From: Candidatus Poribacteria bacterium
GTDB taxonomy: Bacteria > Poribacteria > WGA-4E > PCPOR2b
DNA length: 64,000 nt
Direction of reading: 5' to 3'
Assembly (NCBI GenBank): GCA_965208325.1
Contig: OZ242326.1
Location: 2,976,001-3,040,000 of the forward strand
A program made the translations under genes and the position numbers. Below, in pieces: positions 21,327 through 38,105 of the stretch (its first letter is position 1; each line of letters opens with the position of its first letter). Under the pieces are notes generated by a model. That model did no database searches. It was not told the origin of the DNA and was given only the letters and a program-made list of their open reading frames with translations.

Positions 21327-21428
21327 AGCACGAGCATTCTAATATTTAGGTATCAAAAAGGGCGTCACGTCGGATTTTCATATGGGTCCAACGTGATGCC
21401 CGTATTATTTCAGGAGAGACAAAATTGG

Positions 21429-23411: not shown

Positions 23412-23533
23412 GGATTCGGTCACTTATTTAGGCGACTAAAACCGGGTTTGTACAATATTGACGCATAAACTTTAAATTAGTCTGTAAAAATTCGCTTCGA
23501 TTGCACTATGTTAACAGATTCTGAGGTGTGAAT

Positions 23534-26500
23534 ATGAGCTTTCAGAACGTACTAGACAAATACAGAAAAATCGCTTTCTCCAAGCGCGACATAGGCGATC
23601 GTTTTGAGCGGTTGATGCAGGCGTACCTCAAAACAGACCCTAAATACGCCGCCAAATTCAAAACGGTTTGGCTATGGAATGAGTTCCCCTGGAAATTCGA
23701 CTTAGGTGGTGTTGACTCGGGAATTGATATCGTCGCGGTGACCCACGAAGGCGACTATTGGGCAGTTCAGTGCAAATGCTATCTAGAAGACGCACGTATT
23801 GATAAACCCGCCGTTAACAGTTTCCTCGCCACATCAAGCCGCGAGTTCAAAAACGAAAGCCTTCAAACCACTCGTTTTGCACACCGCCTGTGGATCTCTA
23901 CGACCAACCACTGGGGAAGTAACGCCACTGAGGCAATAACGAATCAAAACCCTCCCGTAACGCGAATCAACCTTTCCGATTTAATTGACGCCCCAGTTGA
24001 TTGGGAAAAATTGGATGCCGGCGTCCATGGTGAAGCCGCACGTGCACTCCGCAAATCGCTTCTCCCCCACCAAGTAGAAGCTTTGCAAAAAGCGCACGTC
24101 CACTTCCAAACCTCAGACCGTGGAAAGCTTATCATGGCTTGTGGGACCGGAAAAACTTTCAACGCTCTGCGCATTGCCGAAAGCGAAACCGATGGTAAGG
24201 GTTTGATACTCTTCCTCGTTCCGAGCATCGCTCTATTGGCTCAAGCGCTGCGCGAATGGAGCGCGGATGCTAACGAACCCATCAATGCTATCTGCATCTG
24301 CTCCGACCCGAAAGTTTCTGTAAAGAGGACCAGAAACCTAGATAGAGTCACCGTCAGTGTCGTCGATTTGGCGTTTCCTGCGTCAACCAATAGCAGGGAC
24401 ATTTTGCGCCAATTTCGATACATACAAATGAAAGATTCGCCGGGAATGACGGTTGTATTTTCCACCTATCAATCTATAGATGTGATATCCGAAGCCCAGA
24501 CTGTTTTGCTGGAAAACGGCTTCAAAGAATTTGACCTGATAATCTGTGACGAAGCCCATCGCACCACAGGCGTGACGTTGGCGAATGAGGATGAATCCGC
24601 CTTTACCAAAGTGCACGATAACCAATTCATCAAAGCAAAAAAACGACTGTACATGACGGCAACACCGCGCCTTTACAGCGATGACGCCAAGAGCAAAGCA
24701 GCAGAGGCCGACGCGATTCTTTGTTCTATGGACGACCCGAAATTGTACGGAGAGGAGATTTATCGCATCGGATTTGGTGAAGCTGTAGAACGAGACCTTC
24801 TCACCGATTACAAAGTGCTGATTCTAACACTCAGCGACGCAGATGTACCTCCTGCGGTACAAGACGCAATAGCCAACAATGAGACAGAAATCAGAACGGA
24901 TGATGTGTCAAAGCTAATCGGCTGCATCAATGCTTTGTCCAAACAGTTTTTGGGCGACGACGGTGAAACAAAAAAATCGGATCCCGAACCCATGCAGCGC
25001 GCCGTTGCGTTCTGCCAAAGTATCGCTGTATCCAAAACGATAACGGCCGCCTACAATCAGCTAACCGATACTTATCTTGACGCTTTGCCCGCTGAACAAA
25101 AAGAGAAAATGGTGTCAGTAAATGCCAAGCATATTGATGGTACCATGACGGCTCCAGACAGAGATGAGATGCTCGGATGGTTAAAAGCCTCCACCGAAAA
25201 CAACGAGTGTCGTGTCCTAACAAACGTCCGTGTGCTTAGTGAAGGCGTAGATGTTCCATCCTTAGATGCCGTCTTGTTTATATCCGCGAAGAACTCCCAG
25301 GTGGACGTGGTCCAATCGGTGGGACGGGTTATGCGCCGATCGCCAGGCAAGAAATACGGTTACATTATTATTCCGGTTGTCGTGCCGCCGGATGTCCCCC
25401 CTGAAAAAGCGCTCGACGACAACGAACGGTACAAAGTCGTCTGGACAGTGCTTTATGCCCTTCGAGCACATGACGACCGCTTCAATGCAACGGTAAACAA
25501 AATAGACCTCAACAAAAAACGCCCACCCCAAATCATAGTAGGTGGTCCTGAAATCACTTTCGATGAGAATGGTAATCCGATATTCATCAAAGAGGATTCC
25601 GCCAGCTACGAGGACAATGACGCGATTGCACACCAACTGATGTTGCGGTTTGAAGAACTGCAAACTGTTATATTCGCACGCATGGTGCAAAAGGTTGGCG
25701 ACCGCCTGTATTGGGAGCAGTGGGCGAAAGATGTTGCAGCTATTGTAGAGCGTCAAATTGAACGAATCAATTACCTTGTCTCGTCCAAACAGGACCAAAA
25801 AGTCGTATTCCAAACCTTCGTTGCTGGCCTGCAAAAGAACATCAATCCAAGCATCACCGAAGATCAAGCCGTAGAGATGCTCGGTCAGCACATAATCACA
25901 CAACCCATTTTTGAAGTCCTATTTGAAGATTACTCCTTCGCAAAAAGCAACCCTGTTTCCACGGCGATGCAGCGAATGTTGGATGAATTAGAAGGCGAAT
26001 CCGTGGCTGAAGACTCGGCAAAGTTGGCGCGGTTCTATGAATCCGTAAAGAAACGGGCGGCGGATATCGACAATGCGGAAGGTAAGCAGCGCATCATCAT
26101 TGAACTGTACGACAAATTCTTCAAAACCGCATTCCCAAAGATGGTAGAGCAGCTAGGCATTGTTTACACCCCAGTCGAGATTGTGGATTTCATTATTAAA
26201 TCTGTCAACAAAGTCCTGAAGTGTGAGTTTGGCCGTCAACTTTCAGATGAAAACGTCCATATCCTAGATCCCTTTACCGGCACGGGAACCTTTATTACTA
26301 GATTACTGCAAAGCGATTTGATCCCCGCCGAAGATCTTACTCGCAAATACCGGGAGGAATTGCACGCTAATGAGATTGTCTTGTTGGCTTATTATATTGC
26401 TGCGGTAAATATCGAAAATGCTTATCACGATCGGTTGGGCGACGAAAGCGGATACGAACGGTTTGAAGGCATTGTGCTCGCTGACAGCTTTCAACTAGGC

Positions 26501-28399
26501 GAAACGGACGAAATCCAAGCGTGTATTACAGAAATGTTCCCCCAAAATTCCGAACGGACCGTTCGGCAAAAGAAAATCCCGTTGCAGGTGATTATAGGCA
26601 ATCCACCGTATTCTGAGGGACAGAAATCAGCCAATGACAATGCCCCGAACCAAAAACATGACAATTTGGATGTTCGGATTGCTGAAACGTATGCAGAGGC
26701 AACTAGAGCGGCCAACAAGAAACCGCTTTACAATTCATACTTCAAAGCCTTCCGTTGGAGCACTGATCGTTTAGACCCAATTCATGGTGGAGTGGTTGCC
26801 TTTGTCACGAATGCGCAATGGATAGATGGCAACAGTTTGGATGGCTTCCGCAAGATAATAGAAAAGGAGTTCTCTAGTATTTGGGTGTTCAACCTGCGAG
26901 GAAATGCCCGTACTTCAGGTGAATTGAGACGAAAAGAGCGTGGCAACGTCTTTGCTGGCGGTTCGCAAAACCCAATTGCCATTACACTCTTGGTGAAGAA
27001 CCCTCGATCCAAATCAGAGAAAGCTGTTATTCGATACTCCGAAGTTGAGGACTACATGACTCGCGAACAAAAGTTGGCTCTCGTAAGCAAATTCGCAATC
27101 CTCGACCACCCTGAGATGCGGTGGGAAACCTTGCAACCCAACCAACACGGTGAGTGGCTAAATCAGCGAAATGACCTATTTGACGACCTTATTCCCTTGG
27201 GGGATAAGGAGCATAACGCCGATGAGGCCGCCTTTTTTGTACCCTATTACAGCCTTGGGCTTGCATCAGGCCGAGACGCCTGGTGTTACAATTCCAACAA
27301 AATGACTCTATCGACCAATATTAAGCAATTGATTGATTTCTACAACAACCAGAGAGAGGCTTTCCACAAAAAAAGACCGTCTGAACCCAAGCTAAGCGTT
27401 GAGGACGCGATTGAATACGACTCGACAAAGATTGCCTGGAACAGGACCCTGCAGCGGGATTTAGAGCGAAATAAGGAAGTCGTTTATACGTCTAACAGCG
27501 TGAATATAGCTATGCATCGCCCGTTCTGCAAACGATATGTTTATTTCGCATCAGAACTTAACGGCATGGTCTATCAACTTCCTAAACTCTTTCCTAAACC
27601 ATCCATACGCAACCAGGTGATTTGTGTTTCAGGGAAAGGGGGCACCAAGGGTTTTTCGGTCCTCATTTCTACCTGTATTCCTGATCTAAATAGCATCGGA
27701 ACTACCCAATGCTTTCCTCTATATTACTTTGCATCGCGAACCAAGCAAAATCCGACCCTGTTTGAGTCCGTCGAAGATAACGAAAAAATTCGTAGAGATG
27801 GAATTACAGATGTCATCCTCGAAAGAGCCAGAACTCAATATGGAAAAAACGTGGACAAGGAGGATATTTTCTACTACGTTTACGGAGTGCTCCACAGCCA
27901 CGATTACCGCACCATCTTTGCCAACAATTTAAAGAGAACCTTGCCCCGCATCCCTTTGACAGACGATGTTCGGGATTTTTGGACGTTCAGCAAAGCGGGA
28001 CGCCGCTTGGCGGATTTGCACATCAATTACGAAACTGTTCCCCCATACACAGGCGTAGGTGTCTGGGGTGCGGAACATGAATTCTACCGTGTAGAAAAAA
28101 TGCGCTTTCCAAAAAACGGACAAGGCGACACCATTATTTTCAACAGTAGAATTACGGTTACACATATTCCGCCAAAGGCATACGAATATGTCGTCAATGG
28201 AAAATCCGCAATAGCTTGGATTATGGATCGCTACCGAGTAACTGTCCACAAAGCCAGCGGTATCAAGAACGATCCCAACGATTGGGCGGAGGAAGTTGGC
28301 AACCCAAGATACATTCTTGACCTGCTATTGAGCATCATCAATGTCAGCGTCCAAACCGTGGACATCGTAAATGCGTTACCTAAATTCAAATTTGAGTGA
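23534..28399 (+). CDS. Type ISP restriction-modification enzyme (LlaGI/LlaBIII-like)
   Basis: Mrr-type nuclease 'IDIVA..WAVQCK'; SF2 ATPase 'MACGTGKT' and 'DEAH'; N6-adenine MTase 'LDPFTGTGTF' and 'NPPY'; C-terminal specificity region ending 'SGIKNDPNDW'. Confidence 0.94.
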   Translation: MSFQNVLDKYRKIAFSKRDIGDRFERLMQAYLKTDPKYAAKFKTVWLWNEFPWKFDLGGVDSGIDIVAVTHEGDYWAVQCKCYLEDARIDKPAVNSFLATSSREFKNESLQTTRFAHRLWISTTNHWGSNATEAITNQNPPVTRINLSDLIDAPVDWEKLDAGVHGEAARALRKSLLPHQVEALQKAHVHFQTSDRGKLIMACGTGKTFNALRIAESETDGKGLILFLVPSIALLAQALREWSADANEPINAICICSDPKVSVKRTRNLDRVTVSVVDLAFPASTNSRDILRQFRYIQMKDSPGMTVVFSTYQSIDVISEAQTVLLENGFKEFDLIICDEAHRTTGVTLANEDESAFTKVHDNQFIKAKKRLYMTATPRLYSDDAKSKAAEADAILCSMDDPKLYGEEIYRIGFGEAVERDLLTDYKVLILTLSDADVPPAVQDAIANNETEIRTDDVSKLIGCINALSKQFLGDDGETKKSDPEPMQRAVAFCQSIAVSKTITAAYNQLTDTYLDALPAEQKEKMVSVNAKHIDGTMTAPDRDEMLGWLKASTENNECRVLTNVRVLSEGVDVPSLDAVLFISAKNSQVDVVQSVGRVMRRSPGKKYGYIIIPVVVPPDVPPEKALDDNERYKVVWTVLYALRAHDDRFNATVNKIDLNKKRPPQIIVGGPEITFDENGNPIFIKEDSASYEDNDAIAHQLMLRFEELQTVIFARMVQKVGDRLYWEQWAKDVAAIVERQIERINYLVSSKQDQKVVFQTFVAGLQKNINPSITEDQAVEMLGQHIITQPIFEVLFEDYSFAKSNPVSTAMQRMLDELEGESVAEDSAKLARFYESVKKRAADIDNAEGKQRIIIELYDKFFKTAFPKMVEQLGIVYTPVEIVDFIIKSVNKVLKCEFGRQLSDENVHILDPFTGTGTFITRLLQSDLIPAEDLTRKYREELHANEIVLLAYYIAAVNIENAYHDRLGDESGYERFEGIVLADSFQLGETDEIQACITEMFPQNSERTVRQKKIPLQVIIGNPPYSEGQKSANDNAPNQKHDNLDVRIAETYAEATRAANKKPLYNSYFKAFRWSTDRLDPIHGGVVAFVTNAQWIDGNSLDGFRKIIEKEFSSIWVFNLRGNARTSGELRRKERGNVFAGGSQNPIAITLLVKNPRSKSEKAVIRYSEVEDYMTREQKLALVSKFAILDHPEMRWETLQPNQHGEWLNQRNDLFDDLIPLGDKEHNADEAAFFVPYYSLGLASGRDAWCYNSNKMTLSTNIKQLIDFYNNQREAFHKKRPSEPKLSVEDAIEYDSTKIAWNRTLQRDLERNKEVVYTSNSVNIAMHRPFCKRYVYFASELNGMVYQLPKLFPKPSIRNQVICVSGKGGTKGFSVLISTCIPDLNSIGTTQCFPLYYFASRTKQNPTLFESVEDNEKIRRDGITDVILERARTQYGKNVDKEDIFYYVYGVLHSHDYRTIFANNLKRTLPRIPLTDDVRDFWTFSKAGRRLADLHINYETVPPYTGVGVWGAEHEFYRVEKMRFPKNGQGDTIIFNSRITVTHIPPKAYEYVVNGKSAIAWIMDRYRVTVHKASGIKNDPNDWAEEVGNPRYILDLLLSIINVSVQTVDIVNALPKFKFE

Positions 28400-28499
28400 A
28401 AATCATCACAGGCCCTTTTCTTTGTTTAGGCATGAGTTGAAACGTGAAAAATCTGAATAACAGTCTCTAAATACAGATGGAATGAGGACGCAATTCTTT

Positions 28500-28934
28500 A
28501 TGAGTACACACCAAATTCACATATTCATTAGCCACTCATGGCACTACTCAAACCATTATGACACCCTAGCAGATTGGATCTTTGGAGGGAATTGGTCGGT
28601 CGGTCAAGCTTCTTTGGATTTTTTCGATTTCTCCGTTCCTAGAGATGACCCAATCCACAACGCTCCCACTGATAAAGCTCTCCAGCAAGCTATCTATAAT
28701 AAGATTGCCCGTAGTCATGTGATTGTCATTCCGACCGGAATGTATTCTCAATATAGCAAATGGATTAAAAAGGAGATAAACGGCGCAAATTACTACAACA
28801 AACCAATCCTCGCTGTCAATCCGTGGGGACAGGAAAGGACGTCTTCCGTCGTTGTCGACAACGCTACCAGTCGTGTGGGTTGGAACAAAAAATCTGTAAT
28901 TGATGAAATATGGAGGTTGTATAAACTAGAATGA
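28500..28934 (+). CDS. Stand-alone TIR-like protein (MTH538/DUF1863/ThsB-like)
   Basis: 'IFISHSW', 'SKWIKKEI' with the putative catalytic Glu, 'KPILAVNPWG'. Confidence 0.85.
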   Translation: MSTHQIHIFISHSWHYSNHYDTLADWIFGGNWSVGQASLDFFDFSVPRDDPIHNAPTDKALQQAIYNKIARSHVIVIPTGMYSQYSKWIKKEINGANYYNKPILAVNPWGQERTSSVVVDNATSRVGWNKKSVIDEIWRLYKLE

Positions 28935-29452
28935 CAGAGCATGATGTTTCTACTAATGGGATTCGCGACAACCTAGTCGTCAATTCAGAAGACGACTACG
29001 GCAATGATTACAAAGCGCACTGTCTTGAAATATATAAGCTCTATGTTGAAAAAGCGGACGCGATTAGTTCTCGTCGCCAGTCAGCAAATTCCTTTTTCTT
29101 GGCTGTTAACACCGCTGTTCTTGGTGTAATTGGCTATGTTGGGAGATCAGATGACGGAACAAAATTAGCTGTTGGTATAGCCGGCGTGCTGCTTTGCTAT
29201 TTCTGGTATCGACTTATTCGGTCGTATGAGCAAATAAACACTGGAAAATTCGAAATAATTCTCGAGATAGAGAACGAACTTCCACTTTCGCCTTATGATG
29301 CCGAGTGGGAAAGACTTGGTCGGGGAAAAAACCCAACGCTCTACAAGCCATTTACCAGAACCGAGATGGTTGTTCCGTGGATTTTTCTGATCTGTCATGT
29401 CGGCGTAATGGTAAATGCCTTTCTCAAAAGCTGCAAAGTCGGCTTTCCCTGA
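28931..29452 (+). CDS. Small membrane protein with about three TM helices, candidate defence effector
   Basis: ATGA overlap with the TIR gene; amphipathic 'YKLYVEKADAISSRRQSANSFF' followed by hydrophobic segments. Confidence 0.75.
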   Translation: MTEHDVSTNGIRDNLVVNSEDDYGNDYKAHCLEIYKLYVEKADAISSRRQSANSFFLAVNTAVLGVIGYVGRSDDGTKLAVGIAGVLLCYFWYRLIRSYEQINTGKFEIILEIENELPLSPYDAEWERLGRGKNPTLYKPFTRTEMVVPWIFLICHVGVMVNAFLKSCKVGFP

Positions 29453-29861
29453 AAATAAAATGCGCCCGCAATAAAATCTGCCGTACAATTGCCTTACCTT
29501 ACGGGGGCCAACGAGGATTCGGCCTTCAACATCAAATGCCAGACGAGTCTGGACGGTGGTCTACGCGGTTGAATGAATTACAACCAAAGCACCGAATTAT
29601 TCCGAACAGAAACGATATTTGAAATCAGAAACACTAGAGATCTCAAACCAGCCTCGTTCTTTCTAAAGCGATTCCAAAATCGCAGACACGAAAATTTGGT
29701 TTGTCCTCCATGGTTCCTTCCGCGTTTACATTTGCAATAGTAGCTTCAGAACAACAAATGGCCTAAAATGTACGGTCTAGCCAATAGTCGGTTTTCATTT
29801 AGGCTTTCCCAATAGATATAGGAAGATTCTCGATTTCTATAGCTTAATTTTATCGGCGGCA

Positions 29862-30170
29862 CTATTTGTAACCACAAGGAAACCGATGCTCTCCACGAAT
29901 TGTTGATTCTACCAGGCGTCGCTGGGCAGCGGACCATGTTGGCGTGTACCGGACAGCAATCTGAACAGTTCCTTGTCTGTTTTGTTCCCAACAGGACCGC
30001 CGTTCATGGCTGTCTATCCGCGTTTTGATTGTGGAAGATTCTCCCACATCGAGAAAATACCATTTACCGTTTCGACGATAATCAAGAATCACGTAGATTC
30101 CTGCACTATCTCTTAAACCAGCGGTCGTTTGGTATGCACCTGCAAAGTCGTAGCCTGCAATCTTAAACAT
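29862..30170 (-). CDS. Minimal GIY-YIG nuclease-like protein
   Basis: 'AGIYVI...YFLDVGES..IKTRI..H' and a C-terminal Glu ('RLVES'); AGGAGA RBS. Confidence 0.75.
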   Translation of the reverse strand: MFKIAGYDFAGAYQTTAGLRDSAGIYVILDYRRNGKWYFLDVGESSTIKTRIDSHERRSCWEQNRQGTVQIAVRYTPTWSAAQRRLVESTIRGEHRFPCGYK

Positions 30171-30313
30171 GTTGACTCTCCTTTCTTGATTTTTGTTGCT
30201 TATGCCACAAGTGTAGTGTACAATTTAACGTAACCGTATTGTGGCTAGGTAAGCAAAGGTTCGAAATTGATATACGTTGTCGTATTTCCAAATTATACTA
30301 TATCGTATTTATC

Positions 30314-30661
30314 ATGTCAAGGGAAAAAAACAAAAATTTCTCCGACCGTCTGCGTGAAACGCGCGAACGCCGAAATCTTAAACAATCTGAATTGGCTGAA
30401 CGGGCTGGATTACAGGTGGCGGCAGTGTCCCATTTTGAAACGGGCCGGCGGGCACCCTCATTTGATAATCTAAGGCGTCTTGCCGATGCCCTAAATGTTA
30501 CGACGGATTATCTTATTGGCCGTGCCGATAAACCGCGGTCATCTGGGCCTAATATAGATAAGCTGTTTCGTAGTGCGGATGAACTGTCTGGGGCGGATTT
30601 GGAAACTTTGGCGGAATTTGCGGAAGTACTTACCAAAAAAAACAAAAAAGAAGAGGCTTGA
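30314..30661 (+). CDS. XRE-family helix-turn-helix regulator
   Basis: 'LRETRERRNLKQSELAERAGL..AAVSHFETGRRAPSFDNLRRLADALNVTTDYL'. Confidence 0.93.
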   Translation: MSREKNKNFSDRLRETRERRNLKQSELAERAGLQVAAVSHFETGRRAPSFDNLRRLADALNVTTDYLIGRADKPRSSGPNIDKLFRSADELSGADLETLAEFAEVLTKKNKKEEA

Positions 30662-30668
30662 GTCCTTT

Positions 30669-31511
30669 ATGTCTTCTAAGCTTGACTATAAGATGGCGGG
30701 CAAACACGCTGAACATCTTCTCAATAAATTGGGCAAGATTAATCTCCCAATCAATCCGTTTCTAATTGCGGAAGAACACGATATCTTGGTCGAACCGAAG
30801 GAATTTGATACACCCATGGCATTTGGATGCTTACTAAAAGTGGGCGATAATTTTGGCATCATGTATTCCACCAATATAAAGAATGAAGGATTTATGCGAT
30901 TTACTGTTGCCCACGAACTTGGTCATTATTTCTTACCTGGGCATGTAGATGCTCTTTTCGTAAACAAGAAGGTACATTACTCAGAGAGCAACTTTGTTTC
31001 AGCAAATCCATTTGAATTACAGGCGGACCATTTTGCGGCGTCGCTACTGATGCCGTCACCAATATTTCTGAAAGAACTACGTCGCGCCGGAGAAGGGTTT
31101 GTTGCCATTGAGTCACTGGCTAACACCTTCAAAACTTCCATTACAGCGACAGCAATCCGCTTTGCCACACATGCTGAAGATCCGGTGGCCGTAATTGTTA
31201 GTGAGGGCAATAGTATTCAATACTGTTTCATGTCTAACGCTTTAAAGGAAATCAAGGGCATTGAGTGGATTAAGCGCGGAGATATAATTCCAAAATCGAG
31301 CAAAACAGAAAATTTCAATAGTGACAAAAATAACATTACTTTGGGACTCACCGCTGAAGGTTCGACGACGCTTGATGAATGGTTTGATGGTTCACCGGAA
31401 ATACCGATGAACGAAGATGTCGTTGGATTGGGAAGTTACGGCAAAACATTGACCGTTCTATTTACTAATGAACCGTTGGACGATGAAGGCGAAGATGAAT
31501 TCGAATGGTAG
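30669..31511 (+). CDS. ImmA/IrrE family Zn metallo-endopeptidase
   Basis: 'RFTVAHELGH', 'ELQADHFAASLLMP', 'F.TS.TA..IR'; 7 bp downstream of the XRE gene. Confidence 0.92.
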   Translation: MSSKLDYKMAGKHAEHLLNKLGKINLPINPFLIAEEHDILVEPKEFDTPMAFGCLLKVGDNFGIMYSTNIKNEGFMRFTVAHELGHYFLPGHVDALFVNKKVHYSESNFVSANPFELQADHFAASLLMPSPIFLKELRRAGEGFVAIESLANTFKTSITATAIRFATHAEDPVAVIVSEGNSIQYCFMSNALKEIKGIEWIKRGDIIPKSSKTENFNSDKNNITLGLTAEGSTTLDEWFDGSPEIPMNEDVVGLGSYGKTLTVLFTNEPLDDEGEDEFEW

Positions 31512-31786
31512 TAGATGTTGAAAATCTAAACAATCACCTCCCTTCTTGGAACATCTCAATTAATCCTTCAATCAAGCATCCTGTCTTAAATTGAATGAGC
31601 CTTCCCACTTAATCTCCGCCGCAGTAGATTTTGCAAAGATTACTGTGCCGAAAAATCCATTTCATAAAAATCCAAACATGATTGTCCTGTAAAGCGGTTG
31701 AACCGTGCGGAGGATTCGTAATTTCATTTTTCGTATCTCAATCGCGTAAAATCTCTTCAAAATCTAAATTATAAGGAGTATTACAA

Positions 31787-32650
31787 ATGCCTACAGGAAA
31801 CGGTACATCGTTAGCAAAAATTGAAGCAAATCGACGAAACGCACAAAAATCCACTGGACCCAAGACCATAGCGGGCAAAGAGAAATCAAAGATGAACGCC
31901 CTAAAACACGGGCTCGTCGCGCAAGCCACGGTGATTCCGGTCGGAGAAGCCAAGGAGGACGACACCGAATTCACACAGTTGTTGGATCGCGTCATGGCGG
32001 AGTTGGAACCCCAAGGCTTCATTGAGGAGATGTTAACCGAAAGAATCGCAATCTGCTACTGGCGGCTCAGACGCGCCGCCTACGCCGAAGTCGGCGAAAT
32101 TCGCAAATCGTTGGACACAGTGATTGGTGACGCCTCCGAAGACGACCTCTCTCGGTTCCAACGCGCCAAATTTGAGTGCGAATCGAAACGTCCTCAACCA
32201 AAATACTTGGCTGAGTTGCAGAACACCGTTCAGGGCATACAATTCTTGATCGATTTTTTAGATGATACTCGACTTGAGTTTGAAAACACCGGCGATCTTC
32301 GTAAAGAAACACGAGACCAACTCCGGAATTACCTGGGTTATAACTATAATCCAATGAGGGATGACGATTACTTTTCCTTCCATGAATGTGATGTCGAAGA
32401 CGAAGATGAGGAATACGAAAGTAACCTCGTTCGCATGCTCGATACGCAGAAAGAGAGACTATCCGCGAAGAAAGCGTTACTCGAAGAAAATCGAAATTTG
32501 CTACATGAAATCAATGTCATCCGCACCGCTATCCCCTTAGATGTCAATCGGATAGTGCGGTACGAAGCAGCGATTGAACGTCAACTGTACAAAGCGCTGG
32601 ACAAACTAGAAGATTTGCAATGGCGTCGGAAATCGGAATCTCAAAATTAA
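31787..32650 (+). CDS. Uncharacterised protein with N-terminal 'ANRRNAQKSTGPKT..GK..SKMNALKHGL' motif
   Basis: 287 aa ORF with AAGGAG RBS; further motifs 'WRLRRA' and 'RYEAAIERQLYKAL..L..LQ'; function unknown. Confidence 0.85.
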   Translation: MPTGNGTSLAKIEANRRNAQKSTGPKTIAGKEKSKMNALKHGLVAQATVIPVGEAKEDDTEFTQLLDRVMAELEPQGFIEEMLTERIAICYWRLRRAAYAEVGEIRKSLDTVIGDASEDDLSRFQRAKFECESKRPQPKYLAELQNTVQGIQFLIDFLDDTRLEFENTGDLRKETRDQLRNYLGYNYNPMRDDDYFSFHECDVEDEDEEYESNLVRMLDTQKERLSAKKALLEENRNLLHEINVIRTAIPLDVNRIVRYEAAIERQLYKALDKLEDLQWRRKSESQN

Positions 32651-32920
32651 CTCGTTTTTACGAAACGAACCCAAAACGAAGCCAAATTACCCGACGCCAT
32701 TTTCCCTCTAACAAGGGATCAACTGAGTGGATAACGAGGCGATAGTTTGGGCACTGGTGCTTTACGAACCGCCATTTATCAGCACCCAACCGGTACAATA
32801 TCCCAACCCTCTACGCCAATGTTACGGCCTAATCACAATAGCCTCTTTTTACGAAACGAACCCAAACAAACCCAAATTTCTTGCCGCACAATTTCTCTTC
32901 TGACAGGGGATCTAATTTTT

Positions 32921-33288
32921 GTAGGTTGGGTAGAGCGATTAGGCGAGTGAATAACGAGGGATCAAGCGAACGAATAGTGAGCGCGATAGACTTCACTAGT
33001 CTTCTCCGAAACCCAACGTTTTGGAAACGTCCGGGTGCCCGGTTGACAGTTGCCGCCACCAGGCTAATCCGAATAAAAAAGGGGGTTGTTTTGTAATTGG
33101 GGTGGGGGATGGTGATTGGGAGGTGTTTGGAATGGCGGAGGTTATAAAAACTGAAGACTATCGCCTTCGCTATTCGCTCAGTTGATCGTTGGGTTTCGCT
33201 GCGTTCAGCATATCTTGCACAAAGTTAGCCTACAGAACGATTGGTTATAATGCGCATGATTAGGTGTACCCGCTCTACCCAACCTACA
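32921..33288. repeat. REPIN-like element (GTAGGTTGGGTAGAGCG..CGAAACCCAAC and its inverse)
   Basis: Inverted termini GTAGGTTGGGTAGAGCG (32921) and CGCTCTACCCAACCTAC (about 33271-33287). Confidence 0.8.
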
Positions 33289-33672
33289 AAAGCCAAATAA
33301 ATTTGCGGCGTGACAGAAGCATCTGAAACCGCTAGCCTAATCACCAAATTTTACGAAACGAACCCAAAACAAACCCAAATTTTCCATCTACAACTTCTCG
33401 CCTGCCAAGCAAGTCTTGGGAGTTAGGAATAAATTGCCGGAACACGAACGGCATTTGTTGGGTGGATACGGTTGGTGCTGGTATACGCTTTCTTCCGTTT
33501 TGTATTTTAACGAACCTTTATATCATTGCGTATACTTTCTACTTCTGGTAAAATATAATGAAGTTTGGACTATATCGCAGGACGCTGGTAGGCCTCAATG
33601 AGAATAGCTTACATCGCGCACATTCCGATACACCACATGGTAGTAGTTATTTTCACATAGGAGATTCGAAAA

Positions 33673-33900
33673 ATGGCTGATGCAATGCCCTATATTCCTT
33701 TTCATCGTGTGAAGGATTGGAAATCTGGCGATAGAATCACCGTGGACGGTAATCCAGGGAAAATCCATGATATTGCTCAATTTGAAAATCCTTCAGGTTC
33801 CGGAGAAAAAATTGCGTCCATCGGTGTGGAATACGACAATGAACCTGGCGTTATTAGACTCGTTGACTTTGATATCCACCAACTCGAACTTGGACGTTAA
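33673..33900 (+). CDS. Small hypothetical protein, possibly SH3/KOW-like beta-barrel
   Basis: 75 aa with AGGAGA RBS; 'KSGDRITVDGNPGKI...IGVEYD' pattern. Confidence 0.65.
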   Translation: MADAMPYIPFHRVKDWKSGDRITVDGNPGKIHDIAQFENPSGSGEKIASIGVEYDNEPGVIRLVDFDIHQLELGR

Positions 33901-34035
33901 CAACTACCAACCACTCTCGCCAAAGATGACATCTCCCCCAAAGCCTTTCACATTGAGAGCGGTGTCTGTGGCATATACCCAATCTTCCTACCGTTAGAGT
34001 GAACTGCCTGACTATATTATTCGACAGGAATTGAA

Positions 34036-34917
34036 GTGGAACAGCAAAATCAAGCCATATTAACCACAGAGTTATCGGAGCAGATTGTCGCCTGCACTTT
34101 TTCTAAAGCAGATTTACAATCCCTCTGTGAAAAACTGCAAGAGTCGAGTTACGAAGCAGCGGAGGAAGAAATAAACCACTATATGCCGCTAGATCGACCG
34201 CCGGAACAAATCCTCGCAGATAGAGAAACGCTTCGATCAGGATTTGAACTACATGTAGCTGTACGAGGAATTGGCGACAAACAAGTTGTTGGAACAATTC
34301 CAGTGGTGTTTAATTCTCCTCGTTTTCCGGAGAAAGTAAAGGGTCTTTACATTGACAGTGCCATAAATTTAAAAAATTTGTACAATTGGTCTCCGAGAAA
34401 TCATTTCGAGTTGATTCTGGATTTTACTAAACCCGAACCGTTCAATCTATCACTTTCGCCTTCTGCGCCCACCCCAAATGGCAGCAATATTTTTGTTTCT
34501 GGGCGAAATGAAACTTGGGTTAATGGAGTTTACCATGCTGTAATGGAATTCGTCAAAAACAGGAAGACGCGCCGGCGATTTCTTCACAAACGTGGCATTT
34601 ATGATGTGCTTGTAATCTTTATAGGATTTCCATTCGCGTTTTGGATTACATTCAGGTTATCTGAATGGATAAACAGTTTGTTCGATGGCTTCTCGGTCTT
34701 TGTTCGAAATGGGGCGTATGTTTTTCTATTTCTGGTGTCGCTAAATATATTCAAAGCATTGTTTGACTACGCCAGATGGACGTTTCCGATTTTAGAGTAT
34801 AAGGGCGCCACGGACACTGCTCGAAAACATAGATATTTTCTGGGGACCCTAGCCATAGCGGTATTTGGGAATTTCCTCTATGATTTGATTAAGAGTATGG
34901 CCGCCCTAATCCAGTAG
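34036..34917 (+). CDS. Hypothetical protein: soluble N-terminal domain plus three C-terminal TM helices
   Basis: 293 aa AT-rich ORF; three hydrophobic segments in the last 110 aa. Confidence 0.8.
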   Translation: MEQQNQAILTTELSEQIVACTFSKADLQSLCEKLQESSYEAAEEEINHYMPLDRPPEQILADRETLRSGFELHVAVRGIGDKQVVGTIPVVFNSPRFPEKVKGLYIDSAINLKNLYNWSPRNHFELILDFTKPEPFNLSLSPSAPTPNGSNIFVSGRNETWVNGVYHAVMEFVKNRKTRRRFLHKRGIYDVLVIFIGFPFAFWITFRLSEWINSLFDGFSVFVRNGAYVFLFLVSLNIFKALFDYARWTFPILEYKGATDTARKHRYFLGTLAIAVFGNFLYDLIKSMAALIQ

Positions 34918-35296
34918 AATCCCCCCAGACTTTTTTAGAAATTCAAATTCAAAGCGTACACACCATCCCATCTGAATGGCTATCACCGCATGCGAGTAGC
35001 CCATCTCGGTTTGCTAACTCTAACCGGCGAAAACACTTCTCCTACGCCCTCTTGGAATCCAAACCCATTCAACGTAAACGTCAACCTACCGTAAGCGACG
35101 TGTACTTACGCCACAAGCCGGGAAGGGAACCTCCTTCCCCCGCTACAAATTTACAGAGTTTTGCAAGGCGTAAGGTAAAAAAGGATACATTTTTGCCAAA
35201 CGAACCCAATTTCTTCGAGCGCACAATCTCACGGAGAAAACATACCCCACACATTCCCCCGTTCCAATGCCGGCGATGCCTCTTTAGAACATTTTC

Positions 35297-36550
35297 ATGA
35301 CCCCAATCCAAAAATCAGCCCAACCCCATGAAAAACGCAATTTCATTGTATTCGTTGTGAATCAGATTTTCGTGCGTATCGGCTGGATATTTAAGACCGA
35401 AACGGTGGTCATGCCCGGCTTTCTCGATACGCATACCCCATCGGGCGTCATACGCGGATTCCTGCCGCTTATCGCCCGAGTCGGACAGAGCTTGCCCCAG
35501 TTTCTCATCGCACACCAAGTTTCAAAGATGCCCAGAAAACAGGCTGTGTTTATAGGGTCAGCGTTCGGCATCATGATCCCTTGGCTCGTTTTGGCGATGA
35601 CACTGGGGTTGACTGGTTATGCGGGAAATGTCATCGTAGGGTTCTTTCTGGCATCATACACAATGCACTGGCTAATGCTCGGCTGCAACATGCTCGCAAA
35701 CGGCACCCTGCAGGGCAAACTAATCCGCGCTGAAAGACGCGGGCGAATCCTGGCTTATGGCAACACCATCGGGTGCATGCTTGCGATTGCGGCTTTCTGG
35801 TTGGCCGCGCCGTACTGGCTGCGCGAAGGAAACACGAATTATGCCTGGATATTCGGAACCACCGGCGGCTTCTTCGGTCTCGCCGCATATGCCGGCTTGT
35901 ATTTCCGCGAACCGCCAGACGCAACCGTACAGGAATCTTCCCCCCTACTTAAGTTTCTCGGTTCTGGCTTGATGCTGGTACGCCGTGACCGGGACTTTCG
36001 CAGGCTGGCAGTGGTAATCCTTCTATTCTACGTCGTTTGGTTGCTTTTCCCGCACTACACCGTTTTCGGGATGCGCAGGTTGGGATTGGCGCCCGGGAAC
36101 TTTTTCACGTTAATCGCCGTTCAGAATACAATAAACGCGTTGAGTTCTGGGGTGATGGGCAATCTAGCCGATCAGCGGGGAAACCGGTTTGTGCTGCGAA
36201 TGCTCATTTTCATCGGCGCCTTAGCCCCATTGGCGGCTATCTTTATTAGCCGGTTAGCCATAGGCGCGGACCTCTATTGGATTGTGTACGCTTTTCTTGG
36301 ATTCATTCCCGTTTCGAATCGTGTTGTCATAAACTACACCCTGGAGATTGCTCCGCAACAAAAACACCCGCAATACTTGGGAGTCATGAGTCTCTTCCAA
36401 GCGCTCCCGTTGTGCGCGTCGCCTCTGCTCGGGCTGCTGATTGACCGACTCTCTTTTGAACCTGTATTTGTCTTCTGCTCGTTAATCACCTTGTGGGCAG
36501 TCTTCCTAACCTTCCGCTTGAGTGAACCTAGATTCGCTCACAATGCTTAG
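35297..36550 (+). CDS. MFS transporter (paralogue 1)
   Basis: About 12 hydrophobic segments; 'GNLADQRGNR' MFS motif A. Confidence 0.88.
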   Translation: MTPIQKSAQPHEKRNFIVFVVNQIFVRIGWIFKTETVVMPGFLDTHTPSGVIRGFLPLIARVGQSLPQFLIAHQVSKMPRKQAVFIGSAFGIMIPWLVLAMTLGLTGYAGNVIVGFFLASYTMHWLMLGCNMLANGTLQGKLIRAERRGRILAYGNTIGCMLAIAAFWLAAPYWLREGNTNYAWIFGTTGGFFGLAAYAGLYFREPPDATVQESSPLLKFLGSGLMLVRRDRDFRRLAVVILLFYVVWLLFPHYTVFGMRRLGLAPGNFFTLIAVQNTINALSSGVMGNLADQRGNRFVLRMLIFIGALAPLAAIFISRLAIGADLYWIVYAFLGFIPVSNRVVINYTLEIAPQQKHPQYLGVMSLFQALPLCASPLLGLLIDRLSFEPVFVFCSLITLWAVFLTFRLSEPRFAHNA

Positions 36551-36564
36551 CTTTTGTGGCTTTT

Positions 36565-36668
36565 GTAGGTTGGGTAGAGCGGCATTCATGAAAAGCGCAT
36601 TTTAGGGCGAATCGGTTCCGGGCACTAAGGCGATTTGAAACTTAATACCATGTAACGAAACCCAACGT
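36565..36668. repeat. REP-like element between the duplicated MFS genes
   Basis: GTAGGTTGGGTAGAGCGG...CGAAACCCAACG. Confidence 0.7.
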
Positions 36669-36833
36669 TTTTCTTGTCTCAACGGGTTGATGATGTGAGA
36701 AGTACGTTCGACGCTCGAAATTGCCGAATTGGTCGACAGACTTTAAAAGTGTTGATGCCCGCACACCTACAAAGTAAACGAGTACCGCCAATTCCCATAA
36801 AATTAGACGGCGAGACCGCTTCGGGACATTTTT

Positions 36834-38105
36834 ATGAACAATATTGAAAATTCATCTCAACCCCATGAAAAACACAACTTCATGGTATTCGTCGTGAATC
36901 AGGTATTGGTGCGCATCGGCTGGATATTCAAGAACGAAACTGCCATTATTCCACGATTCCTTGAACTACACAGCCCGTCCGGAGTCATACGCGGGTTCCT
37001 CCCGCTTATCTTTGGACTCGGGCAAAGTCTGCCCCTGTTTCTCATCGCGCACCCGGTTTCAAAGATGACTAGAAAAAAGGGTGTGTTCGTAATCTCCGCG
37101 TTCGGCAACGCCCTCCCCTGGTTGGTTCTGGCGTTGATATTGGGATTGTCAGATTTCGCTGGTCCTGTCGTCGTAGGTATCTTTTTGGTATCACACACAC
37201 TGAGCTGGTTGATGATGGGGTGTAATCGGCTCGCCATCGGCGTCCTGCAAGGAAAGTTAATCCGCGTCGATCAGCGCGGGCGGCTGTTAGCTTATGACAA
37301 TTCCATCGGCTGCCTACTTGCGGTTGCCGCTTTTTGGCTGGTCATGCCGCATTGGCTGCGAGAAGGAAACACGCATTATGCGTGGATTTTTGGCACCGCC
37401 GGGGGCTTCTTCGGTCTTGCCGCGTGCGCCAGTTTCTATTTTCGGGAGACGCCGGACTGGTATTCTTGGGAACCATCCGGCTCATCTGCGCCTCCCTCTT
37501 TTGCCAAGTTTCTTAGTTCGGGATTGATGCTGGTACGTTATGACCGGAACTTTCGCACACTCGCGGTAGTTATTGTGTTGTTCCATCTCGCTTGGCTGCT
37601 TTTCCCGCACTACACGGTATTTGGGATGCGGAGATTGGGACTGGCGCCCGCGAACTTCTTTGTCATAATTTCTGTACAGAACGTCGTAACCGCGTTCGGT
37701 TCTTGGGCGATGGGAAACTTAGCCGATCGGCGAGGCAACCGGCTTGTGCTGCGTATTTTAGTTTTCATCGGCGTTTTCGCTCCTTTGTCAGCAATTGCTA
37801 TCAGCCGGCTGCCCATGGGAGCTGACCTTTATTGGTTTGTGTTCGCGTTTCTGGGATTTTTTCCGGCATTCAATCGTGTTATAATGAACTACACGCTTGA
37901 GATCGCGCCGCGCGCCAAGCACTCGCAATATCTGGGTGTGATAAATTTAATCCAAGCCTGCTCGCTTTTCGCATCCCCGCTGATTGGGCTTCTAATCGAC
38001 CGGCTCTCATTTGAACCCGTGTTTATTTCCGGCGCCGTATTGGCGCTTACGGCAGGATTACTGACCTTCTGGTTGGCTGAACCCAGACACTCTCGGATTT
38101 TTTAG
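36834..38105 (+). CDS. MFS transporter (paralogue 2)
   Basis: Colinear with and highly similar to 35297-36550; 'GNLADRRGNR'. Confidence 0.88.
   Translation: MNNIENSSQPHEKHNFMVFVVNQVLVRIGWIFKNETAIIPRFLELHSPSGVIRGFLPLIFGLGQSLPLFLIAHPVSKMTRKKGVFVISAFGNALPWLVLALILGLSDFAGPVVVGIFLVSHTLSWLMMGCNRLAIGVLQGKLIRVDQRGRLLAYDNSIGCLLAVAAFWLVMPHWLREGNTHYAWIFGTAGGFFGLAACASFYFRETPDWYSWEPSGSSAPPSFAKFLSSGLMLVRYDRNFRTLAVVIVLFHLAWLLFPHYTVFGMRRLGLAPANFFVIISVQNVVTAFGSWAMGNLADRRGNRLVLRILVFIGVFAPLSAIAISRLPMGADLYWFVFAFLGFFPAFNRVIMNYTLEIAPRAKHSQYLGVINLIQACSLFASPLIGLLIDRLSFEPVFISGAVLALTAGLLTFWLAEPRHSRIF

Follow-up and report, generated by a model that had tools for sequence, protein, structure and literature searches.

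A protein family and its linked DNA word as a possible new type of mobile-island module in a poribacterial sponge symbiont

Introduction

The attC sites of integrons are imperfect inverted repeats with an RYYYAAC...GTTRRRY core, elements of the ISCR/IS91 type are one-ended, and in many phages the pac site lies within or before the small-terminase gene. SaPI satellites are described as encoding their own small terminase (TerS) and packaging their own DNA, TerS being the element's own recognition subunit which makes use of helper capsids (PMC8494744).

The locus compared here with these systems lies in a stretch of 64,000 nucleotides from a Candidatus Poribacteria bacterium (assembly GCA_965208325.1, contig OZ242326.1, positions 2,976,001 to 3,040,000 of the forward strand), which we call the window and to which all coordinates refer unless stated otherwise. 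An earlier note, made from the letters alone, had drawn attention to a gene for a 287-aa "STGP" protein followed by direct repeats that bracket cargo genes. It proposed that the protein is a DNA-binding or strand-transfer enzyme with the repeats as its cis sites, giving an integron-like or REP/RAYT-like gene-capture system. In this sponge symbiont the word contained in the repeats brackets swappable genes of a defence island, and gene and word together have the appearance of a mobile-island module of a new type. The features are the following.

31685..31786, plus strand: 5' flank of the conserved module, from BLAST of the window against sister genomes and a metagenome contig
31787..32650, plus strand: STGP family gene, 287 aa, open reading frame with translation
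32655..32688, plus strand: repeat R1, a T-run and then two phased core words (AAACGAACCCA, AAACGAAGCCA)
32846..32879 (start 32846/7), plus strand: repeat R2, same orientation as R1
32917..33291, no strand assigned: REPIN-like element with two 21-nt arms, perfectly inverted and separated by 333 nt (32917-32937 / 33271-33291)
33349..33530, plus strand: repeat R3 plus a leader of ~150 nt, recurring in sister genomes
33673..33900, plus strand: cargo ORF of 75 aa in the interval R3-R4, no family match
34036..34917, plus strand: cargo ORF of 293 aa in the interval R3-R4, no family match
35190..35209, plus strand: repeat R4, shortened, with a single core (TTTTTGCCAAACGAACCCAA), right edge of the variable island

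Comparison with known systems

The likeness to TerS and pac of SaPI/PICI satellites lies in a small, largely helical protein whose gene stands beside its own repeated DNA site, in the position of the STGP module near the end of a mobile island with accessory genes, and in an N-terminal homology to phage proteins. However, STGP has no match to a TerS family or fold and has only ~45 residues in common with the phage proteins, its site comes after the gene, and the islands of this genome hold no integrase, replication, capsid or capsid-redirecting genes; a packaging role would be one by analogy. The genomic context of TerS, directly before large terminase and portal, is seen for the distant viral relatives in 6/6 cases but not for the window gene, near which there is no terminase or portal gene.

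As in integrons, co-oriented arrays of short cassettes are bounded by a recurring site, and their content and order vary among close relatives. The differences are that no tyrosine recombinase is found within 30 kb, that the STGP gene is co-oriented and its product all-helical, and that R is a direct-repeat word preceding a promoter-like leader and not an imperfect palindrome. With REP/RAYT and IS200/IS605 (REPINs, PATEs) the system has in common one gene family together with many gene-less short elements sharing flank sequence, a patchy distribution, several copies per genome and decayed copies, but no HUH/Y1 motif or fold was matched in Pfam, PHROGs, Foldseek or VIA-align (one may be present all the same) and the STGP word is a non-palindromic direct repeat without hairpins which is found on one side of the gene only. 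A conserved site just past the 3' end of the gene, variable accessory genes on one side and 5'-truncated copies which keep the 3' end are reminiscent of ISCR/IS91; here the differences are that neither an HUH rolling-circle transposase domain nor a terIS-like second end was found. The earlier statement that this is neither CRISPR nor a classical IS holds. Successive window repeats are irregularly spaced (191, 502 and 1841 nt) with genes in the intervals, no match to a classical IS transposase was obtained, and no terminal inverted repeats, target duplications or known transposase were seen at the module ends.

The repeats and the island in the window

The gene and all four repeat copies sit where the earlier note had placed them, R1 beginning with TTTTTACGAAACGAACCCAAAACGAAGCCAAATT at 32655, four bases (CTCG) past the end of the STGP gene. 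The repeat core AAACGAACCCAA, allowing up to one mismatch, has seven matches in the window against 0.58 expected; none of 100 shuffles reaches seven, and all seven are on the plus strand within 32663-35209. The presence of GCCTAATCAC upstream of copies 2 and 3 could be confirmed, and so could the downstream similarity among the copies (family D3, 59 nt, 73%). In addition, the ~20 nt with which the STGP gene ends recur in degenerate form before R2 (family D2, 71% over 41 nt). R1-R3 are phased arrays with units of 10-11 nt, and arrays of the same kind are found at L063 and L071 and also in L009, L118 and L121, where they lie in the tails. No inverted-repeat partner was found at the R copies, and the word is missing from the left end of both module and island. 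The window has no tRNA gene according to a tRNA scan, which speaks against R as an att site derived from a tRNA. A match of the motif at genome position 558016, inside a 714-aa ORF on the opposite strand, is probably due to chance.

The GC content is 0.39-0.48 from ~21200 to 35200 and 0.50-0.58 outside. The REPIN-like element noted between R2 and R3 indeed has 21-nt inverted repeats without mismatch. There are 297 occurrences of its arm in the genome, its metagenome depth is 10-100x that of the flanks, and the family of these 297 arms differs in sequence from the STGP-linked word. The two ORFs reported between R3 and R4 were recovered and are conserved together in G005, G006 and metagenome strains; the 293-aa product has a hydrophobic C-terminal third, as read from the sequence. 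On the left side homology begins at 31685 when compared to the sister species G005 and at 31756 when compared to the contig of a metagenome strain. The earlier note had taken R4, about 100 bp before the MFS genes, as the right edge of the island, and this agrees with the sister genomes: homology to G005 halts exactly at 35209, and homology to G007, which is without the island, resumes at 35244. The distance from the end of R4 to the MFS start codon (35297) is 88 nt.

Linkage of gene and word across phyla

According to the earlier note, proteins with this N-terminal motif often have the word at the 3' end of their genes. This turned out to be the case: AAAC[GA]AA[CG]CCA is found at most 60 nt after the stop codon in 28 of 62 homologue loci (452 kb), with at least seven phyla named on their records, and R1 has the same placement and orientation relative to its gene as the word in these 28. 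Over the 62 loci there are 73 hits on the plus strand vs 8 on the minus strand, and 29 hits lie within 60 nt after the stop vs ~0.07 expected from the minus-strand rate. The word is a gene-linked, oriented element, as had been supposed, strongly enriched just after homologues in many phyla. Among 89 loci with STGP codons the word follows the stop within 60 nt in 32, in 11 loci a further 12 hits extend across the 3' end as called, and in two the word precedes the gene. The word, 12-19 nt long, is conserved in records that bear the labels of at least seven phyla.

The relation between gene and word differs from genome to genome. All three exact sites in G029 adjoin its three full genes, and the single site in G032 likewise adjoins a gene, vs 8 of 10 sites in G030 that are without a detectable gene alongside and 6 of 9 sites in G031 that are copies of a non-coding repeat. 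Non-coding multi-copy elements carry the word in common with the 3' flank of the STGP gene, and decay products retain the 3' end together with the site (G005 R3 and R5, G030 C9, L118, L121). A spread of the word independently of the gene, which according to the earlier note would speak against its proposal, was found in part: across phyla the word is enriched after homologues, but it occurs at 10 places in G006 and 8 places in G007, two sister genomes where the STGP query did not detect the gene.

In other phyla restriction-modification islands have gene and word at their downstream edge. Within 22 word-bearing loci, restriction-modification models match 8 of 55 upstream ORFs (in 7 loci) and none of 54 downstream; the downstream genes are housekeeping genes, e.g. 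sodA, glgB, rplB and priA, and often on the other strand. The right flanks of L023 and L040 are 94.6% identical vs 77.9% for the module, the break lying just past the second word, and L069 and L078, which are in one genome, have in common a 772-nt copy at 95% which is essentially the gene alone.

The STGP protein

The protein carries a basic N-terminal motif, ANRRNAQKSTGPKT..GK...K.NALKHGL, which is its best-conserved portion (net charge of residues 10-44 ~+7, counted from the sequence), a WRLRR helix and a C-terminal RYE..ERQLY helix. W92, R93 and R96 are invariant in both alignments made (22 and 91 sequences), and R258, Y259, E260 and R265 are invariant in the 22 and at least 90% conserved among the 91. 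A word search gave 954 relatives and a profile search 43,604 cluster representatives. Genome loci number at least 566, 80 of which were covered here. The distribution of the gene is patchy: it was found in 3 of 29 genomes of the family, own genome included. It was found in none of 50,697 cultured phages and, only as partial genes, on 4 of 72,556 plasmids, both being collections in which the phyla concerned are scarce. Fourteen relatives are longer, among them two JGI proteins with ERF, one of which also has DUF968/HNH; the C-terminal extensions of eight long forms have no Pfam match.

No match to the protein was obtained in Pfam, NCBIfam, PADLOC, PHROGs or PDB, the best E value in a PDB sequence-profile search being only 0.15, and a search of the ESM Atlas returned unnamed clusters only. 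A full-text literature search on the STGP motif and the repeat word gave nothing relevant among the matches listed. Literature matches listed for the "KTSC domain" contain passing mentions only, and a KTSC partner gene was not found in the own genome. The AlphaFold2 model (pLDDT 81.6) is all-helical with long hairpins and has Y259 within a long predicted helix. Foldseek with this model gave nothing specific (best E 0.22 in PDB, 0.07 in BFVD), and in VIA-align against 48,161 chains the best Z was 7.8, to generic helical hairpins, with no TerS chain among the matches.

Of the two roles considered in the earlier note, strand transfer is not supported by these data: the model is all-helical, no Foldseek match falls below E 0.07 in PDB or BFVD and none is recombinase-like, and the VIA-align matches are generic. 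DNA binding fits with the basic N-terminal motif, with the 10-11-nt phased arrays and with the homology to phage proteins predicted to stand in the small-terminase position (see below), and we infer from the sequences that STGP binds its word.

Variation at the repeats

The expectation that inter-repeat content varies at the repeat boundaries was borne out. Segments are gained, lost and reordered in sister genomes with breakpoints in the repeat, and in one metagenome contig R1 is joined directly and exactly to R3. The cassette order is A-B in the own genome vs B-A in G007; where G007 has a single R, there are two copies of R in G000 with an "empty" interval of 89 nt; and G005 has an extra cassette past R4, homology stopping at the last base of the R4 core. 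The unit of R3 and leader is found twice in G005, once in G006 and at another locus in G007, and several loci of the own genome carry arrays in which R, leader and gene(s) all point the same way.

These rearrangements are in favour of a gene-capture model as put forward in the earlier note. It postulates that STGP acts at specific sites as a recombinase or transposase of a new type, Tyr259 of RYE being the putative nucleophile, and that R copies are recombination sites, integron- or REP/RAYT-like, at which cassettes are inserted, excised and shuffled. The non-coding multi-copy elements with the word, comparable to MITEs/REPINs with partner genes, the strong conservation of R258, Y259, E260, R265, W92, R93 and R96 and the very large and patchy, transposase-like family are in line with it as well. 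However, ordinary homologous recombination between direct repeats of at least 33 nt can yield the observed variation, neither target duplications nor terminal inverted repeats were seen, module and island lack a word copy at the left end, and the arrays are kept by genomes in which searches for the gene were negative. For the all-helical model no match turned up to tyrosine and serine recombinases or to folds of the DDE, HUH and RuvC kind, although the fold could be new. The own genome has four PF00589 genes, none within 30 kb of any R site, and no other known recombinase lies within this distance of a repeat site. The all-helical model without recombinase-like match, the persistence of the word where the gene was not found and the lack of an integrase nearby thus disfavour a recombinase, and we regard this model as improbable.

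The phage connection

An hhalign comparison of the STGP family with 13 viral proteins gave a probability of 98.9% and an E value of 1.9e-17 over the N-terminal motif; the homology spans only ~45 residues and the domain order differs. In six of six viral loci (12 kb each) the homologue is found directly before a protein of ~600 aa, which is followed by portal and head-morphogenesis genes, and it thus occupies the position of the small terminase. The ~600-aa neighbour has a conserved GKT and a DE pair, read from invariant columns as Walker A and B, and weak large-terminase PHROG matches in 3 or 4 of the 6 (E 8e-6 to 0.06); it has no Pfam match, and a PDB profile search with it was empty. The AlphaFold2 model of the viral protein in the small-terminase position is poor (pLDDT 63). 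A sequence resembling the word, which four related contigs of phages have ~250 nt ahead of the integrase gene, was rejected, since ~11 one-mismatch hits are expected by chance in 193 kb.

Regulation, replication and partition

In the own genus, accessory genes with the same orientation as R begin 250-330 nt downstream of it; at 8 of 9 places outside the window R and the next ORF of at least 70 aa point the same way, and after many R cores there is a promoter-proximal repeat whose end lies 17-60 nt ahead of the start codon. These observations are in favour of a regulatory model, in which R is an operator, an UP-like or anti-termination site, or a 3'-UTR/leader RNA motif, and STGP is a transcription or RNA-binding regulator of the island genes. 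The Q gene of phage lambda is likewise followed by the qut site and a terminator, and in some Verrucomicrobia (L014, L020, L016) the second word lies within a terminator-like hairpin; the Verrucomicrobial module has no left-end copy of the word. The label "predicted transcriptional regulator" is given by JGI to 2 of 120 relatives among the matches listed. The model has to cope with the housekeeping genes, often on the opposite strand, which lie downstream in other phyla. RNAalifold gives the two-word module only -7.5 kcal/mol, with a positive covariation term of +0.38, i.e. no net support, and a two-sided change in 2 of 15 predicted pairs. An Rfam search of 26000-38000 with E up to 1 gave no match, promoter and terminator scans around R gave counts not above the shuffled expectation with no sigma-70-like promoter at R, and no known regulator DNA-binding fold was matched. 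A regulatory role for the module is in our opinion unlikely.

The phased 10-11-nt direct repeats adjoining the gene also bring to mind P1 repA-incA, the R1 parC iterons and KfrA. A replication or partition model would have STGP as an initiator or centromere-binding protein and the phased words as iterons or centromere, the module being left from integrated plasmid-like elements. The basic N-terminal domain and the extended helical body, which resemble those of coiled-coil plasmid proteins, and the few plasmid matches (4/72,556) agree with this. Occurrence on plasmids is, however, very rare, no ATPase, helicase or par partner is conserved beside the gene, no family or fold of Rep, ParB, ParR or KfrA was matched, and it is not evident why chromosomal islands in single copy should need a module of this kind. 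We consider this the least probable of the models, and very unlikely.

A small-terminase/pac-like model

The model we prefer, to which we give a probability of roughly 0.4 and which is thus tentative, is that a DNA-binding protein and an iteron-like site form a terminal, small-terminase/pac-like module of mobile defence islands. STGP would be a sequence-specific DNA-binding protein and not a strand-transfer enzyme, and AAAC[GA]AA[CG]CCA, often arrayed at a phase of 10-11 nt, its putative cognate cis site. Gene and site would make up a compact module of ~1.0-1.3 kb, placed at the downstream end of horizontally acquired islands with mostly restriction-modification and other defence genes. By analogy with the phage proteins that have the N-terminal module in common with STGP and stand at the small-terminase position, the module would most likely act as small terminase and pac site, as in phage satellites: STGP would mark the island DNA, which a helper phage would then package or transfer. 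That the outcome is packaging is suggested more weakly than the binding of the word, by this analogy, and it should be noted that STGP matched none of the small-terminase families by sequence or by fold. In the window R1 would be the site of the live gene, and R2, R3 and R4 may be what earlier modules have left behind or may be site units that were copied; recombination among the repeats, homologous or protein-assisted, would add, remove and reorder segments.

A more far-reaching version, which we find rather doubtful, has STGP and its word as the autonomous core of an unrecognised mobility system across phyla. The core could be either an ultra-minimal "pac cassette" which lets adjacent islands ride in phage capsids, or a new all-helical recombinase which inserts and shuffles cassettes at the word. 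The gene-less word repeats would be its non-autonomous partners and restriction-modification/defence islands its usual cargo.

Significance

The STGP module is a concrete and very common candidate for what moves restriction-modification and defence islands without integrase or transposase between genomes. It is rare for a protein and a DNA site to be conserved jointly across phyla. Should the module drive packaging or recombination, it would represent a mobile-element class that is new, in Verrucomicrobiota, Acidobacteriota, Planctomycetota, Poribacteria and further groups that are mostly uncultured, and it would provide a new programmable protein-DNA pair.

The repeats and the gene in their island

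The source genome of the window is a single contig of 4.71 Mb, of which the window takes up 2976001-3040000. The GC content is low from 21.2 to 35.2 kb, and this stretch, which is flanked by nrdJ (18159-21326) and two MFS genes, is a defence island.

Features in island order (the genes preceding the STGP gene occupy 21393-31511)
First: UvrD/GajB-like helicase
Second: Type ISP restriction-modification enzyme, 1623 aa
Third: ThsB-like TIR protein, overlapping an 8xMP membrane protein
Fourth: GIY-YIG-like ORF (weak), minus strand
Fifth: CapH-like HTH protein and CapP-like M78 peptidase (PADLOC capP, 2.4e-59)
Last: the STGP gene and its repeats, as follows
31787-32650, plus strand: STGP gene, ORF of 287 aa
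From 32655, plus strand: R1, TTTTTACGAAACGAACCCAAAACGAAGCCAAATT, four bases past the STGP stop
From 32846 and from 33349, plus strand: R2 and R3, further copies of TTTTTACGAAACGAACCCAAAACGAAGCCAAATT, oriented as R1
From 35190, plus strand: R4, a short form of the repeat, oriented as R1

The earlier note had described this arrangement of gene end and four co-oriented repeats, with GCCTAATCAC upstream of copies 2 and 3, similarity downstream of the copies, an element in the interval 2-3, two ORFs in the interval 3-4 and the last repeat near an MFS gene. All of this was found again, the element containing a perfect 21-nt inverted repeat and the last repeat lying about 90 nt ahead of the MFS gene. 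Allowing one mismatch, AAACGAACCCAA has 7 matches in the 64 kb, all on the plus strand and within 32663-35209, where 0.58 are expected; 7 was reached in 0 of 100 shuffles. There was no CBASS operon beside the CapH-like/CapP-like pair, no tRNA in a scan of the window and no Rfam match in the island (26000-38000 searched). The 30 kb on either side of the repeats contained no tyrosine recombinase.

The REPIN-like family is present at 32917-33291 and 36559-36735, and its arm, GTAGGTTGGGTAGAGCG, occurs 297 times in the genome with at most 2 mismatches. An arm is found within 150 nt of 3 of 11 word sites compared to 1.8% of random places, and the metagenome depth on the element is 10-100 times that of its flanks. 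The tandem MFS paralogues (35297-36550 and 36834-38105) have a REPIN-like spacer between them; at this locus the sister genomes G005 and G006 match the first paralogue only.

Linkage of the word to the gene

At least 600 stretches were matched when one genome per species was scanned, with at least 566 confirmed relatives. Among the matches listed were 80 loci, and the linkage count covers the 62 of these in which the gene could be called (452 kb). The word, AAAC[GA]AA[CG]CCA, is found there 73 times on the gene strand and 8 times on the opposite strand. Of the 73, 29, spread over 28 loci, lie within 60 nt past the stop, where about 0.07 would be expected from the minus-strand rate; the word that the earlier note had placed at the 3' end of homologues is enriched there, and in the gene's orientation. 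According to the record titles these loci originate from Poribacteria, Verrucomicrobiota, Acidobacteriota, Nitrospinota, Ignavibacteriales, Zixibacteria and Anaerolineales; Planctomycetota loci carry variant words. When viral loci are included the word lies within 60 nt past the stop in 32 of 89 loci, 12 further matches in 11 of the 89 overlap the ORF 3' end as called, and in 2 of the 89 the word lies about 25 nt ahead of the gene start.

The unit conserved in Verrucomicrobia spans about 1.2 kb: a KTSC-domain ORF, the STGP gene, the first word, a gap of about 85 nt and the second word. It is located beside varied housekeeping genes (sodA, glgB, rplB/rpsS, priA, a squalene synthase gene). The KTSC-domain ORF is small (PF13619) and runs up to or into the start of the STGP gene in 12 Verrucomicrobial loci, e.g. 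L040:3685-3996; the two genes form an operon in one clade, and the ORF is absent from the source genome.

The flanks were surveyed in 22 of the 80 loci, all word-bearing and with full flanks, and only for ORFs of 150-1100 aa, of which there were 109 (55 upstream, 54 downstream). Restriction-modification models match 8 of the 55 upstream ORFs (7 loci) versus none of the 54 downstream. Four downstream ORFs have PADLOC matches, to a cysteine-desulfurase-type DndA/SspA model, two ABC ATPases and GlgB, the last three being housekeeping enzymes by Pfam. At one locus available from two genomes (L023 and L040) the right flank is 94.6% identical and the module 77.9%, and the identity switches directly past the second word. 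The distribution of the gene is patchy: counting the source genome, it was found in 3 of the 29 genomes belonging to the family and in 2 of the 4 belonging to the genus. Decayed copies retain the word and the gene's 3' end; G005 has two such remnants of 63 nt, G030 a fragment of 57 residues and G031 remnants of 29 and 57 residues. The best-supported conclusion is that the STGP protein and the word form a pair, which marks the downstream edge of mobile restriction-modification/defence islands.

Two unannotated families without Pfam match were seen in these flanks. One, of about 310 aa, lies between the restriction-modification gene and KTSC-STGP (L011:2752-3690, L017:2740-3708, L030:2771-3694; 36-73% identity among the three); the other, of 312-380 aa, has the corresponding place in L031 and L040. 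A 453-aa ORF 2 kb downstream of the module in another locus (L014:6952-8310) matches Replication-associated protein ORF2/G2P (9.2e-7) and may be part of an integrated rolling-circle element.

Word arrays are phased at 10-11 nt in R1-R3, in two further loci (L063, L071) and in the tails of several Verrucomicrobial copies. Sites to which a protein binds cooperatively along one face of the duplex, such as iterons and centromere-like sites, are usually phased in this way. The phasing would suit an STGP protein acting as initiator or partition protein with the words as its iterons; we find this very unlikely.

Words without the gene

According to the earlier note, a word spread genome-wide independently of the gene would refute its proposal. 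Among other gene-bearing genomes, all 3 exact word sites of G029 adjoin its 3 full STGP genes and the sole site of G032 adjoins its sole gene; in G030 2 of 10 sites adjoin a gene or gene fragment, and in G031 3 of 9 adjoin a gene or C-terminal remnant. The sister genomes G005, G006 and G007 have the word at 15, 10 and 8 places (reversed-pattern controls 0), and a search with the window protein found no STGP gene in G006 and G007; this counts against a simple pairing of gene and site.

Many gene-less sites are copies of longer non-coding repeats. One of about 600 nt has about six copies in G031 (L114, L115, L117, L119, L120). It contains the first and the second word, separated by an 85-nt spacer, and then 10-nt units resembling CTAATCCGAC as a tail, ending near a GTGCCATTATGGCAC hairpin; G030 has another word-bearing type in four copies. 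These repeats could be relics, regulatory units of their own or non-autonomous partners. A second, promoter-proximal repeat of the source genome (...TTCAATCCGTGTAATCC.TTAATCCGCGGCAATCCGCGATTCAGAC) is present in 18 clustered copies (genome positions 450106, 1121110-1121397, 1698880-1701573, 3362566-3363934 and 4538953-4550874). It often follows straight after a word core, ending 17-60 nt ahead of a start codon; it contains two AATCCGCG units 10 nt apart and looks like a promoter or operator common to accessory cassettes. Outside the window there are 9 word places; at 8 of them the following ORF of at least 70 aa runs in the direction of the word, and the ninth is inside an opposite-strand ORF. 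A regulator with the word as its operator or RNA motif would accord with this placement ahead of genes; we consider a regulator unlikely.

Variation at the repeats between strains

All four genomes of the genus have a hotspot between nrdJ and the MFS genes. G007 has only a restriction-modification gene pair and no word there, with flanks 94% identical. G006 has the same pair, a 650-aa gene and the unit from R3 through its leader and the 75-aa and 293-aa cargo ORFs to R4, and no STGP gene. In G005 the island upstream is a different one, with a methyltransferase and a 552-aa protein that has a weak Shedu-type match; STGP and at least five repeat units follow, with an extra cassette after R4. The homology of G005 to the source genome spans 31685-35209 and stops at the final base of the R4 core. 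A metagenome contig (run X8, record 24; about 95% identical) joins 32686 straight to 33381, that is R1 to R3, and its homology begins at 31756, 31 nt ahead of the start codon; a contig of run X7 has R3 through the MFS gene, the STGP gene being without cover. The content between repeats thus varies at repeat boundaries between strains, as had been proposed.

Elsewhere a single word of G007 corresponds to two in the source genome, 89 nt apart; the cassette after the first word of the 446-kb locus differs between the two genomes, and two cassettes at 4.54 Mb are ordered A-B in the source genome and B-A in G007. A 9-kb island with two words in G007 corresponds to an empty site in the source genome. 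A 1.3-kb segment with a 436-aa minus-strand ORF (source genome 448297-449613) is missing from the syntenic place in G007 and is probably an IS insertion.

The protein family and the phage lead

The STGP protein has no match in Pfam, NCBIfam, PADLOC or PHROGs. A word-indexed search found 954 relatives, the closest named ones among the matches listed being labelled Candidatus Poribacteria. A profile built on 91 of these matched 43,604 of 1.84 billion cluster representatives at E <=1e-3 (26,484 at <=1e-10 and 3,978 at <=1e-30). Three parts are conserved: the N-terminal motif ANRRNAQKSTGPKT..GK...K.NALKHGL, a P.G..EE.L.E.IA..YWRLRR helix and a C-terminal LP....RI.RYE..ERQLYRAL helix. The AlphaFold2 model is all helix with long hairpins (pLDDT 81.6, pTM 0.62).

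The earlier note proposed a DNA-binding or strand-transfer enzyme. No specific match was obtained with Foldseek against PDB and BFVD, VIA-align against 48,161 chains, PDB sequence profiles or the ESM Atlas, and a known recombinase, transposase or nuclease fold is therefore unsupported. The protein may conceivably have a new fold; that it is a recombinase of such a fold is unlikely. The likeness to integrons or REP/RAYT systems failed on defining traits. Integrons share the variation of cassette content at site boundaries; their recombinase and their inverted-repeat sites were not found. For REP/RAYT systems the test for palindromic flanking sites was negative, and no HUH/Y1 match was obtained in Pfam, PHROGs or the fold searches. 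The defining tests for CRISPR and classical IS were negative as well, in agreement with the note.

In IMG/VR 23 stretches encode a relative. Thirteen viral proteins of 228-317 aa share ...AR..NAQKSTGP.T.EGK..S..N.WKHG followed by four invariant cysteines, and hhalign aligns them to the STGP family over the motif only (probability 98.9%, E 1.9e-17). In all six viral 12-kb loci examined the motif gene abuts a gene of about 600 aa, followed by portal (phrog_30703, 1e-45 to 1e-63) and head-morphogenesis genes; this is the small-terminase position. The small terminase is the subunit which recognises pac or cos DNA of the phage. A GKT and a DE pair are conserved in the ~600-aa protein, and from sequence we read them as putative Walker A and B. 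This putative large terminase has weak large-terminase PHROG matches in 3 or 4 of the 6 loci and no Pfam or PDB-profile match. In one viral contig (L093) three words follow a full STGP gene, and the contig ends about 150 nt past that gene. L099, L100, L102, L104, L105 and L112 represent an uncultured temperate-phage group, whose protein in the small-terminase position combines a coiled coil, the STGP motif and the four cysteines.

A proposed role in phage-mediated transfer

A full-text literature search, Pfam, NCBIfam, PADLOC, PHROGs and PDB gave no description of the STGP family, the word or their link, and the STGP protein differs from known small terminases in belonging to none of their families. 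Phage satellites such as SaPIs encode a small terminase of their own, leading to packaging of their own DNA (PMC8494744). We consider a small-terminase/pac-like role in phage-mediated transfer the most probable mechanism. The reading as a whole, to which we give a probability of about 0.4, is that the STGP protein would bind DNA with the word as its site, and that the pair would act in this small-terminase/pac-like way. R2-R4 of the window would then be left over from earlier modules and site units, and the cargo would be remodelled as these recombine.
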